Source: a virus (Duplodnaviria; Heunggongvirae; Uroviricota; Caudoviricetes). From it: 64,000 bases of DNA. Within the stretch, counting starts at the first letter, position 1; each line of letters starts with the position of its first letter. Below the pieces are notes generated by a model that saw only the letters and a list, made by a program, of their open reading frames with translations, was not told the DNA's origin and searched no databases. The position numbers were made by a program, and so were the translations under genes. The stretch is taken from IMG/VR virus record IMGVR_UViG_2645727901_000008; one strand, given 5' to 3'. Below are positions 54,556-63,642 of the stretch, piece after piece.

Positions 54556-55323
54556 TCACCCCATAGATATCGAGGTTTCGGTAATAATACGTTTTGCGTC
54601 CAACTCCCATGCTGTGATCACGTCTGCAATCACACTTATCGGCGCTTGTGTGGCATAAATACGCTCTTCTCCAATTGGTGCCGAAACATCCGTAAATCCG
54701 ACTTCTTTGGCATCCTGTATCGAGCAAATCAGCGGGACCGGGACACGAACAAGGTGAGTGGTTGCTTCAAATTGTGTACCTGTCATCAGGCGAAGCCGTG
54801 CGCCCAGCGAATTACACATCAGACTCATGGTCGCTTTATCAGTTGACATTAACGTAACGTCATACGTCAGAATGGCCTGGGTGTATTCCAGTTCTGCTAA
54901 AGGCATTCCGGTATCCGGTTCGCAAAAACTGGCTACTTTTTTGCGGTCAATCTGCTGATCATCGTTGATATAATTGATATCCATAGTGCGTGAGATATTG
55001 ACCAGGGGGAGAGCATCCCGGTTAATGTTCTGGTTTTCAGGTTTTCTCCCTTGCCCGGCATTTGCGCGACGAACTGCTTTAAGAAACTCGATCGCATTGT
55101 CGAAACGGGCCACATAGACACGCTCTGCTGGTGGACGATTCAGGAATGACGCAAAGCGTTTTTCTTCCGGCGCGGGGGCCACCAGTAAGATATCAGAAAA
55201 GATATTGCTGATTAGCGTAGCAAACGCGTTATCCACGTTTTCAAAGCCCGTGGTCTGGAATTTCCCTGTGCGTGAGGTTTGCCATTCACCTGTTCGCGCC
55301 AGGAGGGTTTTATTTGAAGTCAT
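54556..55323 (-). CDS. hypothetical structural protein
   Basis: 255-aa ORF in the same late operon. Confidence 0.4.
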   Translation of the reverse strand: MTSNKTLLARTGEWQTSRTGKFQTTGFENVDNAFATLISNIFSDILLVAPAPEEKRFASFLNRPPAERVYVARFDNAIEFLKAVRRANAGQGRKPENQNINRDALPLVNISRTMDINYINDDQQIDRKKVASFCEPDTGMPLAELEYTQAILTYDVTLMSTDKATMSLMCNSLGARLRLMTGTQFEATTHLVRVPVPLICSIQDAKEVGFTDVSAPIGEERIYATQAPISVIADVITAWELDAKRIITETSISMG

Positions 55324-56111
55324 TCGATCACTCCGTTTTGAGTCGTATCAAAATTCCTGGCAGGTATGCAGTAGTAAAGCGAACCAACATGCTGTGTGCC
55401 GTAGCTAAAAATACGGTGCACGTACCACCAGCGGCGGGCTACGCCGTTTACCATCTCTTCATTCCATTCAAGAATTGATCCGACGGGGACGTTATTTGCT
55501 GCAATACGCAGAATCAGAACATCATCGGTTAAGCCATCCTGCTCACCGTCTGCGTCAATCGCATGGAAAGAGTCACGCCCGTCCGGGTTATCCAGCACAT
55601 AAACGATTTCAGGTTCCTGGTAAGTCAGTTCGCGCTGGTTGTTATCCAGTTCAGTGAATGACTCTTCTCCTGTTTCGTCGCTGACTACCCCATATGTGCC
55701 AACATCTGGTCGATATAAGAGAGCCTGAAACGCGTCTGGGCTGGATTCAATAATCAGCATCCAGTCTGCGCGGATTTGGTCGTTAAAGGCTTTATGCCCG
55801 TTATAGCGTGCTTTTAGCTGTGGAGTTGGTTCTCTGCCAGCCAGGGAAGGTGGAAGTATGGCTATATCTGATTCGGCAGCATCCGGAGTAAGGCCAGCGT
55901 TGCTATCAGCAAAATTATCATGGCTATCAGCTTTGGCGGCGGGTTGCTCTTCCAGAATGCTGAATGAATCCGAACCGGTATTGCCATGTTCCGGCGCGCC
56001 TCCTGCATTCGCTTCAATCGGCGCTGGCGTTTCTCTCTGCGTGCTGTCATGTTCTGACTCATTACTTGCCAGGTTTGCATCGTCAGCAAACCATTCGTCA
56101 AAACGGCCCAT
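55320..56111 (-). CDS. hypothetical acidic protein
   Basis: Track ORF 55320..56153; ATG 56111 (MGRFDEW…) has SD gagg at good spacing and sits 52-62 bp from the late-type motif. Confidence 0.4.
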   Translation of the reverse strand: MGRFDEWFADDANLASNESEHDSTQRETPAPIEANAGGAPEHGNTGSDSFSILEEQPAAKADSHDNFADSNAGLTPDAAESDIAILPPSLAGREPTPQLKARYNGHKAFNDQIRADWMLIIESSPDAFQALLYRPDVGTYGVVSDETGEESFTELDNNQRELTYQEPEIVYVLDNPDGRDSFHAIDADGEQDGLTDDVLILRIAANNVPVGSILEWNEEMVNGVARRWWYVHRIFSYGTQHVGSLYYCIPARNFDTTQNGVIE

Positions 56112-56162
56112 AAGCATCCTCAAAGGTCGATTTATCAGGTATCGAGGGTGCATTGTCTGGAG

Positions 56163-56256: not shown

Positions 56257-56559
56257 ATGAAAATAATTTCGGTAAAAACACTAAGGGATTTCTGGGCGAA
56301 GAATCCCGATGCAGAACAGCCATTAAAGGCATGGGTTGATGAAGCAACAAAGGCTGACTGGAAAAATCCGGCTGAGATCAAAGAACAGTACCGGACAGCC
56401 AGCATCCTTAAAAACAGGCGCGTGGTGTTCAATATTAAGGGAAATGATTACAGGTTAATTGTCGCAATTGCTTATCAGCGAGGATGGATGTTCGTTAAGT
56501 TTATTGGAACACATAAGGAATACGATGCCATTGAAGCGGATACAATAGAACTGGAGTAA
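56257..56559 (+). CDS. higB: HigB toxin (RelE/ParE superfamily)
   Basis: MKIISVKTLRDFWAKNPDAEQ…VVFNIKGNDYRLIVAIAYQRGWMFVKFIGTHKEYD; the THKEYD motif and fold pattern match E. coli HigB as recalled; SD gaagga. Confidence 0.85.
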   Translation: MKIISVKTLRDFWAKNPDAEQPLKAWVDEATKADWKNPAEIKEQYRTASILKNRRVVFNIKGNDYRLIVAIAYQRGWMFVKFIGTHKEYDAIEADTIELE

Positions 56560-56562
56560 ATC

Positions 56563-56922
56563 ATGAACATTAAACCTATCCGTACAGAACAAGATTATGA
56601 GGCCGCACTGCGTGCGGTCGAACCGATGTTCGATAACGAACCGGAAATGAACACACCGGAAGGCGATTTCTTTGAAGTAATGTGCCTGCTCATTGAAGAG
56701 TACGAGAAAAAGCATTACCCAATTGAGCCACCATCACCTATTGAAGCCATTAAATTCCGTATGGAACAGCAAGGGCTGACCGTGAAGGATCTGGAACCGG
56801 CGATTGGTAAGTCAAATCGAGTTTACGAAGTGCTTAATGGGACACGAAATTTGACGTTACCTATGATTCGTCGTTTACATGCCCAGTTTGGTATTCCACT
56901 GGAAAGTCTGGTTGGTGTTTAA
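56563..56922 (+). CDS. higA: HigA antitoxin (HTH)
   Basis: 119 aa, 3 bp after higB; C-terminal HTH-like segment LTVKDLEPAIGKSNRVYEVLNG. Confidence 0.8.
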   Translation: MNIKPIRTEQDYEAALRAVEPMFDNEPEMNTPEGDFFEVMCLLIEEYEKKHYPIEPPSPIEAIKFRMEQQGLTVKDLEPAIGKSNRVYEVLNGTRNLTLPMIRRLHAQFGIPLESLVGV

Positions 56923-56984
56923 GTTTGGCGGTCTGGAGGACCGCTTTTTATCTAAAATAAAAATTAGAAGGTTTGATAGCTTGT

Positions 56985-57722
56985 ATGGGCAAAAATTCAT
57001 CAACAGAAAACACATCTACAATTGACTCAATCAAGGGCACAATGGATGAAGCCATAAAAGATAAATTATTTAATAAATTATTTGCATATGTGGTGGTTTC
57101 ATTTTTTGTCGTTAATTGGCAAGAAATACTAATTTTGTTTAAATCTAAATATGATATATACACAACACTGTCTATAGTATGGGTAGGGGATAAATATCAA
57201 ATCCCTTATTTTGGAACCTTCATTGTATCTCCGTTTTTAGCTCACTTTGTGATGCCGTTTATATATGGCACTATTGCGTCCATAGTGATGCCTTATATTA
57301 CTATGCGTATATCAAAACTCACTGGTAGAAATTATGCGCAAATAAGATACATTGACCATGAATTTGACTCAGAAGAGAAAGCAAGAGTAAAGGCGTTGCT
57401 GAGAAACCTAAAGAAAAAAGAGGAAGAGCTTTTAAAATTAGAGGAACAAATAGAAGGTCAACAAAAAATACTGAATACAATCGAAGAAAAGAAGAGAGAG
57501 ATTGAGAGTGCCAGAGTGGCTCTGTATCACGGTATAAAAGTAATTGTTGATATATATAAAGCAAAAGATAAAAGGATTTCCACCAAAGAAGATTTTGCCG
57601 ATTTATTAAAAGCAATTGAAGAAAGTGATTTTTATAAAGACACTGGGTTGTGGGGTATTAATAAATTAATAGATGACGTGGAGACAATATATGAGTCTCA
57701 ATCGACATCAAAGGACAAGTAA
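56985..57722 (+). CDS. membrane protein with C-terminal coiled coil (cargo)
   Basis: Very AT-rich; hydrophobic helices FAYVVVSFFVVNW and FIVSPFLAHFVMPFIYGTIASIVMPYI, then a K/E-rich coiled coil. Start codon uncertain. Confidence 0.5.
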   Translation: MGKNSSTENTSTIDSIKGTMDEAIKDKLFNKLFAYVVVSFFVVNWQEILILFKSKYDIYTTLSIVWVGDKYQIPYFGTFIVSPFLAHFVMPFIYGTIASIVMPYITMRISKLTGRNYAQIRYIDHEFDSEEKARVKALLRNLKKKEEELLKLEEQIEGQQKILNTIEEKKREIESARVALYHGIKVIVDIYKAKDKRISTKEDFADLLKAIEESDFYKDTGLWGINKLIDDVETIYESQSTSKDK

Positions 57723-57726
57723 TATA

Positions 57727-57752
57727 AAAGGCGGGATAACCGCCTTTGTTGT
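57727..57752. terminator. bidirectional intrinsic terminator
   Basis: aaaggcgg-gataa-ccgccttt between convergent genes. Confidence 0.55.
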
Positions 57753-57755
57753 AAA

Positions 57756-58952
57756 TTAAGAACCTTTCTTCACATACTCCATGAACATTTTTTCAGCTTG
57801 TGCAGGTGGTGTTCCTGCCATGACCAGCGCATCAATGAACGCCTGCTTCTTCAGTGCGAACTGATCGGCCAGGCGTTGCTGAAGCTCCTTGTTTTTCTGT
57901 TTCTCACGTTGCAACGCCGCTTCTTTTGCTGCCGCCCGTTTTTTCTGTGCGTCTGACAACTTTCTGGCCTTGGTCAGTTGGTCACGTAGCTTGTCAATCT
58001 TGCCGTTGTCCTTTGCCAGTTTTGTGCTTAAAGCGGCCTGGCGCTTCTGATAGAGCCTCCATTCGCGCTTGGCAGCGTCAACGTTTGTTTTACTGTTGCG
58101 ATTGCGATTAAACTCCCTCTCGTCTTCTTTTGAGAAGTGTTTGGTTGTACGGCGGCGATCGTCACCAAATGCAATTTGCGTTGCGGCCTTTTGTAACGCA
58201 CGAGCAATACTCATTTGCCAACTAGCGGACTGTAACCGCGTCATTGAGTGGATCACGTGTTTACAGGCGACGCCTTGTAGCTTAGGGTTACGAACTTTTG
58301 GATAGGCGTATTCTTTTGGCGGGGCCAGGGCAAAGTTACCCGCAGTAGCGATGTAACGATACCAGTATTGATGACGACCACAGTCACAATCGAAAGACAC
58401 CCGCCCGGCGCACAGTGATTTAGTGATTTTCAGAGCTGATTTATCGTCTTCTGCGATGTCATCGACCATCTGATCCCATTCTTCAAAGCGTATCCGGACG
58501 ATATGGTGCTGGTGGACGGATATATCCGATGCTTCTACGCGGATATGAATCACGTTGTGGCGAAGAGATACGGGTGTAGCTCTTTTGATACCAGATCCGT
58601 CATCCACGGCGTTATTTGCACGCTTAATATCGATTGCCTGGCTGGATGCCACCAGCTGGGCGTATGTGATGCCAGCCGTCTTGCTGTCATATTTTTCGCG
58701 TGTTTTACTCCGTAGCTTTTCGAAACCTTTCAGGTCGTCTCGCGTGAAGAACGTGCCGCCTTTTTTCTTCCCTAACTTGAGAATATCTTCGGCGGATTTG
58801 TTCCTCAGTCTACCTGGCGTCAGCGTCCGGTGAGCTTGTCGGCGCTTACGGGTTTGTTCTTTCCTGATAAGGTCGAATAAACGCGTGAAGTCCTTAGAGG
58901 ACAGGCCGTCAGTGATATAGCGCCCGTCCTGGTTTTTCAGGAAATCAGGCAT
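57756..58952 (-). CDS. Cys/His-motif protein with lysine-rich coiled-coil C-terminus
   Basis: 398 aa with FDCDCGRH…CKHVIH, a possible zinc-binding motif, and a K/A/Q-rich coiled coil; start overlaps the upstream gene by 8 nt. Confidence 0.5.
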   Translation of the reverse strand: MPDFLKNQDGRYITDGLSSKDFTRLFDLIRKEQTRKRRQAHRTLTPGRLRNKSAEDILKLGKKKGGTFFTRDDLKGFEKLRSKTREKYDSKTAGITYAQLVASSQAIDIKRANNAVDDGSGIKRATPVSLRHNVIHIRVEASDISVHQHHIVRIRFEEWDQMVDDIAEDDKSALKITKSLCAGRVSFDCDCGRHQYWYRYIATAGNFALAPPKEYAYPKVRNPKLQGVACKHVIHSMTRLQSASWQMSIARALQKAATQIAFGDDRRRTTKHFSKEDEREFNRNRNSKTNVDAAKREWRLYQKRQAALSTKLAKDNGKIDKLRDQLTKARKLSDAQKKRAAAKEAALQREKQKNKELQQRLADQFALKKQAFIDALVMAGTPPAQAEKMFMEYVKKGS

Positions 58953-60524: not shown

Positions 60525-61148
60525 ATGAAGGATGGTGTAGTGAAGTTAAGGGTTTTAGGGGCCGCGCTCGCGGCTATGTTGGGATGCGTATCTGCTAATA
60601 CTGCCAATGCAACTGCGTTACCTGCACAATTCAGGGCAGGGCAGCAGGTTATGAATAATGCTGGTGGGGATCATTCACAAGCGGCCATTATGGACTTTTG
60701 CAAGAGGGAGGGCATTCCATTACGGCCTGTTGGAACTCAGTTTATTGGTAAAACTGACTTTTGCGTTTTTGCATATACAGCATATCTGACGGACAAAGCT
60801 ATAACAAAAACAGGTTATTCAACCAAAGATACTCTTTCCAGATTAAGTCAGGGATGGCAGCAATTCGAAGTGTATCGCCAGCAAGGATTAGGTGAGTTAT
60901 TGCAACCACTTTTTATGCTTGCGTTGGTGCCCGAGGGGCAGCAATTTTTGGTTAAAAAGGGAATGCTTCGCCAAAGTGATATTGCCGGGTTCGATAGCAT
61001 GATGGCTTATGAGCGCAAACTAACCGAGCAGCGAAATAAAAAACCATCTGCTTCATGTGTGCAAAGTAAAACAGCAGAATACAGTGCAGTAGCCGGGCCT
61101 TTAGCCAAACAAATGGCAGAGCAATGGTGTAAAAAATACGGGCAATAA
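60525..61148 (+). CDS. secreted/periplasmic protein (signal peptide)
   Basis: Signal peptide KLRVLGAALAAMLGCVSANTANA; likely GTG start at 60540 with SD aagga; possible lipobox MLGC. Confidence 0.5.
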   Translation: MKDGVVKLRVLGAALAAMLGCVSANTANATALPAQFRAGQQVMNNAGGDHSQAAIMDFCKREGIPLRPVGTQFIGKTDFCVFAYTAYLTDKAITKTGYSTKDTLSRLSQGWQQFEVYRQQGLGELLQPLFMLALVPEGQQFLVKKGMLRQSDIAGFDSMMAYERKLTEQRNKKPSASCVQSKTAEYSAVAGPLAKQMAEQWCKKYGQ

Positions 61149-61168
61149 GTTACGCAGCGGAGGCAGAA

Positions 61169-61561
61169 TTGAAAAGATTGACTATTGCTTTACTGGCGTC
61201 TTTCCCTTTGATCGCGAGCGCCGGAAATTTACAAGTTAAGTGCGGTCGGTTTGATATAAAAATCTATCCAGATGCCATATTTCTGAATGGGAATAAGGTT
61301 GATAACGTACACCGAAAAACTAAATCTGACGTAATGAGCTATGTGTTCCAGGAGTATGCGGAGATGGGGGGAACTTACACGCTGTACTCGCTGGATGTTC
61401 CTTCTCGCGGTGATATGACATTATCCCATCAATGGCAGAACGCCGATGGCGAAGCTCTGCGCGAAGTTAAAACAGAAAAATGCGGCACTTTCCATTCTTT
61501 TAAAGGGAAAGTGCCAAATGTTAAATCTGTGCTTGAAAAACAGCGCGCAGGTGATTTTTAA
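61169..61561 (+). CDS. secreted small protein (signal peptide)
   Basis: MKRLTIALLASFPLIASA signal peptide; 130 aa; followed by a terminator. Confidence 0.5.
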   Translation: MKRLTIALLASFPLIASAGNLQVKCGRFDIKIYPDAIFLNGNKVDNVHRKTKSDVMSYVFQEYAEMGGTYTLYSLDVPSRGDMTLSHQWQNADGEALREVKTEKCGTFHSFKGKVPNVKSVLEKQRAGDF

Positions 61562-61649: not shown

Positions 61650-62279
61650 TCATTTTTGTCGGATCTTTTCCAGCATATTTAATTCATTATCACTTTCTGC
61701 TGCTGAGACGGTTGGCCTCACATTTCCGAAATATTTCCTGTGAGACTCATGACTTATGTATTCACCGACAGTTTCATTCTTGAATATACGAATTTGACAT
61801 ATGCGAGATCCAACAATAAGTTCTACAGGGCTATTCCCATGATTAAATAACTCTAAAGATATACAGCCTCTGTACCCTGGTTGTATCATGGTATTTAATG
61901 AAAGACCAAGCCTTGTATAGCTGCTTCTGGACAATACATCAGCGTAGCAATCTGGTGGCAAACAAACATATTCTAATGTTGTTGCCAGTACCACTTGATT
62001 CGGGTAAACAATGAATCTATCCCCAAGATCTCTCCTTGTTTCCTGGAAAAATGTTCTGATTGGTTGATGAGTATCATTGTTTTTTGATGGAATTAACTCT
62101 ATTGACGGCTTCCTTGTCATAATAGACACTAAAAAATCGTAACCAAGTCTAAGGTCTATGGTGAAGTTCCCAATTTGGTTTTTATTTAGAAGAGGTTCAA
62201 TGAACAACGACTCAGGTTCTTCTGATTCATAATATTGCAGCAATTCAGCTTTGCTTAGGAGATTCATTGTGCACTCCAT
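61650..62279 (-). CDS. dCTP deaminase family (Dcd / dUTPase-fold) protein
   Basis: IDLRLGYDF…LSRSSYTRLGLSL…IQPGYRGCISLELFNHGNSPVELIVGSRICQIRIF is collinear with E. coli Dcd motifs as recalled, including the S/R and E catalytic positions. Last gene of a coupled operon; AT-rich. Confidence 0.75.
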   Translation of the reverse strand: MECTMNLLSKAELLQYYESEEPESLFIEPLLNKNQIGNFTIDLRLGYDFLVSIMTRKPSIELIPSKNNDTHQPIRTFFQETRRDLGDRFIVYPNQVVLATTLEYVCLPPDCYADVLSRSSYTRLGLSLNTMIQPGYRGCISLELFNHGNSPVELIVGSRICQIRIFKNETVGEYISHESHRKYFGNVRPTVSAAESDNELNMLEKIRQK

Positions 62280-63337
62280 TTTTCAAGAATCATTACGTTT
62301 CGAATCGATTTTTCAACCAAATCATTTATAGTTTTTTCTATGGCTTCTTGTGACAACCCAGACCATATACCCGTAGGTTTTTCCCATTCAGAGCATAAGT
62401 ACTGCCAGCTGCTGTTAATAAAAGCATGCATTTCATTGTGGTCGCGAATAACAAAAGGACGCACATTATCAAAAGCTGATTTCACATCAAGCAAAGGTGT
62501 CGGCAATGTCAAACAAGGAGAAATAATCTGCCCACCATTATGTAAGGCTGATATCACAGCATTGAACATGCCAACAACTGGATTTTCCACTTTGTTCAAA
62601 AAGTCGCTTACAATTTTAACTCTATCTTCTGTGGATGGGTGAGTATAGCTTGCAGGATGAGAGCCAGCTAATTTGTATAAGAAATCTACCCCACTTTTTC
62701 CAATAAATTGGGCACTAAATAGATCTGCAAAATATTCTCTGCAATGATTTATCCAAATAACATCAGGTAGATTACTCCATTCTGGTCCAGGAAGTGTGCC
62801 TTTGTCCTTGGAACGATAGTTAAGACAGGCAAGCTCAGAAATACCTTTGCTAATATCAACGAAATGTCCCAATTCGTGATATAAAGGTATAGAGCATAAT
62901 GGTCGTCTTCTGTACATTTCAGGTAATGAAATCTGAATTAATTCGACATCGAATTTGACATTTAAAACTTCGTCAAATAAAGAATACAAATTCTTGTTTA
63001 CAGACTTAAAATAAAACCCATGCATATCTGGAGATAGGGCTGTGGTTATAAGTGTTTTTTCACTTATCCATTTTTTACAGGCATCATTTAAGCAATAGAC
63101 AATCTCGTAGGGAATTTTCTTTGTAGTACTGCCAGTGAAAAAATTAACTGCATCGGTGATAAAAAAAGTACAATCCGCAATTATTTTATCAGCAACATTC
63201 ACATGGTTTTCATAGAGCTTATCCACCGCTTCTTGTAGAACAGCAAGATATTCATGCATGTCTTTAGAAAAATAGGGAGATTCTGATATCTCCCTTAGCT
63301 TATTTCGAACTAATGTAAGTTGTGTAAATGCAAGCAT
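62264..63337 (-). CDS. HExxH zinc-metallopeptidase-like protein (ImmA/IrrE-like core)
   Basis: 357 aa with LYHELGHFVD and a downstream HCREYFADLF element resembling the ImmA/IrrE E..A..FA motif; start and stop overlap the neighbouring genes. Confidence 0.6.
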   Translation of the reverse strand: MLAFTQLTLVRNKLREISESPYFSKDMHEYLAVLQEAVDKLYENHVNVADKIIADCTFFITDAVNFFTGSTTKKIPYEIVYCLNDACKKWISEKTLITTALSPDMHGFYFKSVNKNLYSLFDEVLNVKFDVELIQISLPEMYRRRPLCSIPLYHELGHFVDISKGISELACLNYRSKDKGTLPGPEWSNLPDVIWINHCREYFADLFSAQFIGKSGVDFLYKLAGSHPASYTHPSTEDRVKIVSDFLNKVENPVVGMFNAVISALHNGGQIISPCLTLPTPLLDVKSAFDNVRPFVIRDHNEMHAFINSSWQYLCSEWEKPTGIWSGLSQEAIEKTINDLVEKSIRNVMILEKWSAQ

Positions 63338-63642
63338 TAAATGTACTCTAATACATTCCGGGCCATTACGGGTTCTAACATATCTTCGCTAGTTACTTTG
63401 GTTAGCACCTGGGCGAGCGCCTTAGTGTGGCGTATCTCTACCGCGAGCGAGATGGACTCTCTGTGAGAAGGAATCTGTAATTGATCACCTTTATCTACAC
63501 TTAAGTTTGAGGCTTCTCTGATCACCTCATAAACCCGTAACTTTAACTGCTGTGACACTTCTTGTTGAGATGCTATAAGCTGAAGTACAGTCTTGATCAA
63601 CTTCAAAGAATCAGAAGCTTGCTGAGGAACCGCATAGAGCAT
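63337..63642 (-). CDS. small protein, first gene of the peptidase-Dcd operon
   Basis: 101 aa with strong SD aaggagg; its stop overlaps the peptidase ATG by 1 nt; no motif recognised. Confidence 0.5.
   Translation of the reverse strand: MLYAVPQQASDSLKLIKTVLQLIASQQEVSQQLKLRVYEVIREASNLSVDKGDQLQIPSHRESISLAVEIRHTKALAQVLTKVTSEDMLEPVMARNVLEYI

Follow-up and report, generated by a model that had tools for sequence, protein, structure and literature searches.

The window analysed here, a stretch of 64,000 nucleotides (nt) from the virus record IMGVR_UViG_2645727901_000008 in IMG/VR, carries at 56985-57722 on the plus strand an AT-rich gene that we refer to as X. The open reading frame (ORF) of X is intact, extending from the ATG at 56985 to the TAA at 57722, and encodes 245 residues. 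Its product matched phrog_8191 over the full length (E-value 1.5e-112; residues 1-245 on positions 1-241 of the 242-position profile), and the start codon agrees with this match and with the N-termini of the homologues. The results described below firmly support X as a real, functional and self-contained accessory gene (moron) that encodes a membrane protein and is independent of the adjacent higBA genes. An antisense ORF at 57319-57615 was taken as a by-product of coding for a segment rich in lysine and glutamate (K/E-rich). The features of the locus are collected in Table 1.

Over the three-quarters of a 4-kb query that aligned to phage D6, the region around X showed 95% identity, and the closest plasmids, from Escherichia coli and Salmonella, were 94-99% identical over the full query and were typed as non-mobilizable. 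Judged by these matches, the 64-kb window is a D6-like phage-plasmid, related to P1. According to a preprint (10.1101/2025.09.12.675607), D6-like phage-plasmids occur widely, though at low frequency, in E. coli, Shigella and Salmonella, and are reported to contain nearly no recognised complete defence systems. The allele group of X was found in 29 of 5426 complete E. coli genomes, on plasmids only, with no chromosomal copy. The minus-strand genes flanking X are homologues of the tail and baseplate genes 7, 25 and 26 of P1. In P1, genes 25 and 7 adjoin each other with a gap of 3 nt, both belonging to a single late operon under the control of LP26, and X is absent. In the D6 lineage, this late tail operon is interrupted between gene 7 and gene 25 by a cargo slot on the plus strand. 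X runs against the tail operon, shares the orientation of the neighbouring lysogeny-type cargo, and would be expressed in the lysogen.

The initial annotation had described X as a gene whose AT-rich composition stands out from the backbone, and we could confirm this. With a guanine plus cytosine (GC) content of 0.324, and of 0.297 at third codon positions (GC3), X is the lowest-GC 738-nt stretch in the whole window (mean 0.464, standard deviation 0.037 for windows of this size), while the flanking tail genes are at 0.50. Among related loci (n=32), the GC content of X was 0.28-0.35 and that of the flanks 0.49-0.52. Taking into account that every X allele and every remote homologue lies 9-26 GC points below its flanks, AT-richness is a lasting property of the family. 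In enterobacteria, such composition suggests silencing by H-NS.

The bidirectional terminator proposed on the far side of X was also recovered. This hairpin, located between X and the convergent gene-25 homologue, folds with -15.4 kcal/mol on the plus strand and -11.7 kcal/mol on the minus strand (z-scores -4.9 and -3.4), and an equivalent exists in a relative from soil (L042). A second hairpin, between higA and X, had been overlooked in the initial annotation of this D6-like element. The two hairpins have GGCGG...CCGCC cores in common. X is absent from the complete D6-like plasmid NZ_CP135715 (L010; 93 kb), in which a tblastn search with 61 family members found no copy of the family anywhere. 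Its X-less site (2126-2150) contains exactly one hybrid hairpin, GGCGGTC-tgtat-GACCGCC, followed by TTTGTTGT. The hybrid hairpin of X-less plasmids is made up of the left arm of the first hairpin in the window and the sequence after the second, an arrangement consistent with gain or loss of X via recombination between the terminators. X displays three of the traits by which morons are recognised, namely presence or absence at the same site, a terminator of its own and foreign composition. The initial view of X as an accessory rather than a core or structural gene is borne out by its absence from P1 and NZ_CP135715, its strand, its composition, an allelic diversity far beyond that of the backbone, and the location of remote homologues beside genes of defence type that PADLOC recognises.

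This diversity was examined by comparing X with its flanks. Between the window and D6, gene 7, gene 25 and gene 26 are 98, 98 and 100% identical, whereas X is 38% identical, with 52% in the membrane half and 26% in the half comprising the stalk and C-terminal domain. Across comparisons, the identity of the C-terminal half was 21-32% where that of the N-terminal half was 52-53%. At least six allele classes, with 100, 94, 79, 67, 63 and 36-38% identity to X of the window, occur on one backbone, the alleles being 36-100% identical within backbones that are 97-100% identical. The synonymous divergence (dS) of X was 0.57-0.69 where that of gene 25 was 0.04-0.06; overall it was at least 10 times that of the flanks and reached 1.2, with a ratio of nonsynonymous to synonymous divergence (dN/dS) of 0.2-0.27. 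High dS together with low dN/dS indicates that old alleles, kept under purifying selection, have been swapped by recombination, and that rapid mutation on the spot is not the source of the diversity. Fast evolution in situ, or gene-wide positive selection, was rejected, as dN/dS is about 0.2 and dS at least 10 times that of the flanks. Direct traces of segment exchange were also found. In two alleles that are otherwise 35% identical, the first 45 residues are 87-100% identical; residues 46-120 of X in the window are 87-100% identical to an allele with different ends, and over the final 250 nt the identity to the 79% allele is 92-100%. The X alleles are old segment mosaics under purifying selection.

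The neighbouring higBA pair named in the initial annotation is genuine (Table 1), whereas the link to X that it implied proved to be one of position. Gene order was compared in 38 related loci. X is the plus-strand gene adjoining gene 25 in all arrangements but one, in which a gene of the YjaZ family (PF27200, 162 residues; L005, 5823-6311) lies between X and gene 25. This allele class indicates that the slot can hold cargo on both sides of X. What lies upstream of X varies: HigB with the 119-residue HigA (HigA119), RelE-HigA112 followed by HigA119, another HigB-HigA pair of Klebsiella type, UmuDC (in Klebsiella grimontii), or no further cargo. Behind RelE-HigA112, HigA119 may be intact, cut to 66 residues or frameshifted, and X stays intact. 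The same 79% allele of X was found behind two different modules, HigB-HigA119 (L017) and RelE-HigA112-HigA119 (L012), and HigB-HigA119 occurs without X in some plasmids. Distant D6-like elements from soil and rhizosphere metagenomes (57, 73 and 69% identity in gene 7, gene 25 and gene 26, respectively) display the order gene 7, remote X homologue, gene 25, with no toxin-antitoxin genes; here too X is AT-rich and followed by a hairpin. With such varied upstream modules, and with relatives that carry X there free of toxin-antitoxin genes, X seems to have occupied the slot for a long time, and the toxin-antitoxin and umuDC modules seem to have come in later, on the side of X that faces gene 7. 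X and higBA are separate cassettes.

These comparisons bear on the possibility that HigB, HigA and X together form a three-part system of the PD-lambda-2 kind, with X as the third component. Defence by PD-lambda-2 requires all of its parts, a HigB-like protein, a HigA-like protein and a third gene (Vassallo et al. 2022, PMC9519451). There are likenesses. HigB matched component A, HigA matched component B in its N-terminal helix-turn-helix (HTH) part (positions 1-119 of 402 in the PD-Lambda-2_B profile and no further; E-value 7e-43), a third gene lies downstream, and Klebsiella elements carry a deeply diverged trio of HigB (26% identity), HigA (29%) and X (42%). However, HigA of the window is devoid of the C-terminal ImmA/IrrE peptidase domain that defines component B, X is not a component C of the P4-antitoxin type (no match to any PADLOC model), and a terminator-like hairpin separates higA from X. 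The trio on Klebsiella IncFIB plasmids was rejected as an independent association, being a 1,731-bp fragment, 95% identical to the Klebsiella-type phage-plasmid slot, that runs from within gene 7 to the X stop codon. Plasmids with higBA and no X exist, and distant relatives carry X in this slot and no toxin-antitoxin genes. X also remains intact where HigA119 is truncated or frameshifted, and one X allele stands behind different modules. Given these data on presence, absence and shuffling, we rejected X as a third partner of higBA, a role that we regard as very unlikely.

The structure of X was modelled with AlphaFold2 on a 61-sequence alignment, giving a mean predicted local distance difference test score (pLDDT) of 86.4; an earlier model from 14 close sequences was poor (pLDDT 65). 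Hydropathy revealed hydrophobic segments at residues of about 32-52 and 73-107, and the model contains helices in these regions, in agreement with the two hydrophobic helices initially proposed. Residues 83-193 form a single unbroken helix with pLDDT above 90. As for the long K/E-rich coiled coil of the initial annotation, a K/E-rich helix of 110 residues is indeed present (14 K+R and 14 D+E among the 60 residues 126-185), while the coiled coil itself is plausible, not proven, because the heptad periodicity is just modest, with 13 of 20 a/d positions hydrophobic, a value reached by 191 of 5000 shuffles. The 61 aligned members share one layout: a basic residue, a helix with N-W, an S-K pair, a helix with the pattern P...G...P, a long helix and a small C-terminal domain. 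N44 and P103 were conserved in all 61 members, P91 in 60, W45 in 57 and G95 in 50, and S54 in more than 90%; the loop 54-82 differs in length. Counted over the family, net charges were +0.8 in the N-terminal flank, -0.75 in the loop and +1.3 in the C-terminal flank. From this in-out-in pattern, the stalk and C-terminal domain are predicted to face the cytoplasm. X is thus predicted to be an inner-membrane protein with two membrane helices and both ends in the cytoplasm.

Table 1. Features of the X locus, with positions in the window
Feature	Position	Strand	Basis and remarks
Gene X, accessory membrane protein with helical stalk, phrog_8191 family	56985..57722	+	ORF, profile match, GC content, dN/dS
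Hydrophobic helix 1, residues 31-53	57075..57143	+	Hydropathy; AlphaFold2 helices 31-43 and 45-53, kink at N44-W45
Predicted periplasmic loop, residues 54-82	57144..57230	+	AlphaFold2 short helix 58-67; family net charge -0.75
Hydrophobic helix 2, residues 83-108	57231..57308	+	Hydropathy, AlphaFold2; conserved P91, G95, P103
K/E-rich helical stalk, residues 109-193	57309..57563	+	Continuous with helix 2; predicted cytoplasmic; most variable between alleles
Small C-terminal three-helix domain, residues 201-244	57585..57716	+	AlphaFold2; family motif Y191 ... D203-F204, invariant columns
Possible Shine-Dalgarno sequence AGAAGG	56966..56971	+	13 nt before the ATG; also in L012; long spacing, weak
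Terminator-like hairpin of the higBA operon, then TTTTTAT	56927..56945	+	-12 kcal/mol, z-score -2.5; left boundary of X cassette
Bidirectional terminator hairpin, X / convergent gene-25 homologue	57727..57747	both	Right boundary of X cassette
higB, RelE-fold toxin, separate cassette	56257..56559	+	Pfam PF09907 HigB_toxin, 3e-34; PADLOC PD-Lambda-2_A (PDLC03979), 1e-41
higA, 119-residue HTH antitoxin without peptidase domain, separate cassette	56563..56922	+	Pfam HTH_3 alone
Homologue of P1 tail gene 7	55320..56153	-	Left edge of cargo slot; phrog_1906, D6 annotation
Homologue of P1 tail gene 25	57756..58952	-	Right edge of cargo slot; phrog_1722, D6 and P1 annotation

An exhaustive profile search for the wider family retrieved 79 cluster representatives (50% identity) with E-values of 1e-3 or lower, 26 of them at 1e-10 or lower, and nearly all full-length matches were 190-370 residues long. 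The family members fall in five PHROGs (phrog_8191, phrog_13369, phrog_4780, phrog_35327 and phrog_22645), each matched by 30 to 60 of the 61 members, phrog_8191 by 60. All five are labelled 'unknown function', and membership thus names the family and says nothing on its role. Profile searches with the wide or the membrane-domain alignment returned close or truncated relatives alone. Scans of X and its 61 relatives against Pfam, NCBIfam and PADLOC gave only coiled-coil noise (LmuB, JetC, ZapB and the like) and a sub-threshold match of the C-terminal domain to DUF6947 (17.5 bits against a cut-off of 27); X had no PADLOC match at E-values up to 1, and when PDB chains were searched by sequence with the membrane-domain profile, none matched at E-values up to 1. 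Literature look-ups by accession number and PHROG identifier found no paper.

A further possibility is that X has no function, either as the remains of a gene in decay or as an ORF that arose by chance. The AT-rich DNA, and copies that are frameshifted or split by an insertion sequence (IS) (L020, L014), would fit such an origin. On the other hand, dN/dS was 0.2-0.27 over dS values up to 1.2, the model confidence is 86, and the architecture is kept across the 79 clusters with N44 and P103 invariant. This possibility is contradicted by the selection and conservation data, and is extremely improbable.

The genomic contexts of remote members, collected by pattern scans (1 locus in genome contigs, 5 in metagenomes and 31 in viral contigs), pointed to several types of temperate element. 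In a lambdoid Klebsiella prophage, the homologue is a single gene on the opposite strand between the replication and nin genes, in an epsilon15-like phage it is likewise a single opposite-strand gene, set among genes of the minus strand that lie between those for the tail and the terminase, and in P2-like prophages it stands at the end, after gpD and ogr. Other homologues adjoin a SIR2/ThsA-like gene and integrases, follow two AbiTii genes, follow an OLD/Gabija-like ATPase and a C5 methyltransferase, adjoin a serine/threonine kinase (mad6 / PD-T4-6-like) and an integrase, or follow an HNH effector-like gene. On an Enterobacter chromosome (L015), the homologue stands alone between housekeeping genes, and in another locus (L039) it resides in an island with an H-NS-like gene.

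We also considered a role in morphogenesis or lysis, with X as a membrane anchor of the tail or baseplate or as a spanin- or holin-like factor. The position of X between tail and baseplate genes is kept even in the distant D6-like elements, the combination of a membrane anchor and a long helix recalls an i-spanin, and one of the 61 members weakly matched phrog_312, the Rz-like spanin family (8e-5). Several observations are at odds with this role. X lies on the strand opposite to the late operon and is absent from P1 and a complete D6-like plasmid. Its hypervariability contrasts with the 97-100% identity of the sole candidate partners examined, the flanking structural genes 7, 25 and 26, and homologues occur outside any tail module. 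Unlike an Rz-like i-spanin, X is not near lysis genes, has no o-spanin ORF as a partner, and has a stalk predicted to be cytoplasmic. Such a role would hardly be expected.

Taking together the cassette anatomy, independence from higBA, mosaic alleles, composition and predicted topology of X and the contexts of its homologues, we propose as the most likely function, tentatively and with somewhat less than even confidence, that X acts by itself to guard the lysogen against other phages, by exclusion or abortive infection. Another reading is that X is a membrane protein for lysogenic conversion or fitness with no relation to defence, acting, for example, in envelope or stress adaptation, in interbacterial competition or immunity, or in the plasmid lifestyle. 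All that the evidence shows is that X is an accessory gene for a membrane protein and that selection maintains it; the searches revealed no homology to defence genes, and the homologues among Enterobacter housekeeping genes and beside the H-NS-like gene would agree with this. However, ancient mosaic alleles in near-identical backbones, and the repeated adjacency of homologues to defence-type genes, are more typical of conflict genes, and we regard a fitness role as possible, on the whole rather unlikely.

A number of results weigh against a protective function. X showed no homology to known defence, exclusion or abortive-infection families in PHROGs, Pfam, NCBIfam and PADLOC, and fold searches gave no informative structural neighbour. 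The defence-type neighbourhoods of the homologues come without a background rate for genes of prophages and islands. Gene-wide positive selection on X was not detected. X has been lost in some D6-like plasmids, and of the 40 best matches to the slot, at least 7 cover just 3.2 kb. Copies on Klebsiella IncFIB plasmids are frequently split by IS903B, which shows X to be easily dispensable. Moreover, no promoter-like site was found in a scan of the 40 nt that separate the higA terminator from the X start codon; by eye, a TAAAAT is present at 56953-56958, without a -35 element. Expression of X may depend on read-through of the higBA hairpin.

If X does protect the lysogen, a sensor-effector of the abortive-infection type is probably favoured over a classical block of DNA entry, as the bulk of the protein is predicted to lie in the cytoplasm. 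There, the variable parts, the stalk and the C-terminal domain, would recognise a cue of infection, and the conserved membrane domain would then compromise the membrane or a membrane-bound step of the infection. Exclusion or defence by X would add a new single-gene family with exchangeable specificity segments, and would provide a simple setting in which to examine how infection is sensed by a membrane protein. If X is not a defence gene, it would still be the oldest resident of a recombination hotspot that has repeatedly captured toxin-antitoxin modules. In either case, X marks a conserved cargo slot within the tail operon of D6-like phage-plasmids, and belongs to an uncharacterised superfamily of membrane proteins that recurs in several lineages of temperate phages and beside defence-type genes.

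Some further observations concern other cargo. The slot piece on the IncFIB plasmids (L013, 4968-6692; L014) comprises the 5' end of gene 7, a promoter region with repeated GTTCACATAaTGTAAACGG motifs, higB, higA and X. The presence of this 1.7-kb piece on large Klebsiella plasmids is an example of gene flow from phage-plasmids to plasmids. The 119-residue HigA persists as an orphan behind RelE-HigA112 in D6 and many relatives (L001, L012, L023, L005), which suggests that its cognate HigB was replaced and that the antitoxin is decaying or has been kept as an anti-addiction gene. A second AT-rich patch of the window, at 61650-63642 on the minus strand, contains a three-ORF operon encoding proteins of 101, 357 and 209 residues. 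The 357-residue product has a HELGH metalloprotease-like motif, and the 209-residue product is dCTP-deaminase-like (PF22769, 1.3e-30). The three ORFs had no match in PADLOC v2; the operon may be defence cargo of the nucleotide-depletion type. Between the gene-26 and mat homologues, some D6-like relatives carry further toxin-antitoxin-like pairs, HigB-like (PF05015) or Gp49 with an HTH protein (L005 and L009, 8157-8728; L008, 8157-9081), and the soil relative L042 carries a low-GC ORF of 273 residues of unknown family. This gap may be a second cargo slot. At 60525-61561 on the plus strand of the window, adjacent ORFs of 207 and 130 residues have signal-peptide-like N-termini and no Pfam or PADLOC match. 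They correspond in position to the simB-like superimmunity gene of the D6 annotation.

Among known systems, the predicted order of helices in X recalls the pore-loop cation channels (NaK, the KcsA/MthK type and bacterial Nav). The model of X resembles these in having an outer helix, a short re-entrant-like helix, a loop and an inner helix hinged by Gly and Pro, and, as in bacterial Nav channels with a C-terminal coiled coil, the inner helix runs on into a long helix that is predicted to be cytoplasmic. In a Foldseek search of the PDB, 28 of 32 weak matches were two-helix pore-loop channels, all non-significant (E-values 0.76-10, TM-score 0.32 or lower). Unlike these channels, the X family has no conserved selectivity-filter motif (T-V-G-Y/D-G) and its loop varies in length; the sequence WVGD is confined to the closest clade, and G68 is present in 8 of the 61 members. 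The likeness is for this reason treated as a lead only. It is conceivable, if improbable, that the family represents a new phage-borne class of membrane channel, similar to pore-loop cation channels through structural convergence or distant kinship, in which the two helices and the re-entrant element would oligomerise via the stalk to form a one-protein switch for abortive infection. The variable stalk and C-terminal domain would then gate the pore upon sensing infection.

The closest parallels are the prophage morons that bring about superinfection exclusion or abortive infection, represented by T4 Imm, P22 SieA, HK97 gp15 and lambda RexB. X differs from these in having no sequence or profile similarity to them and in its larger size, with the 85-residue stalk and the C-terminal domain predicted to be cytoplasmic. 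Like them, X is a single small, predicted inner-membrane protein of a temperate element, set apart from its surroundings by strand, terminator and composition, and present or absent between close relatives.

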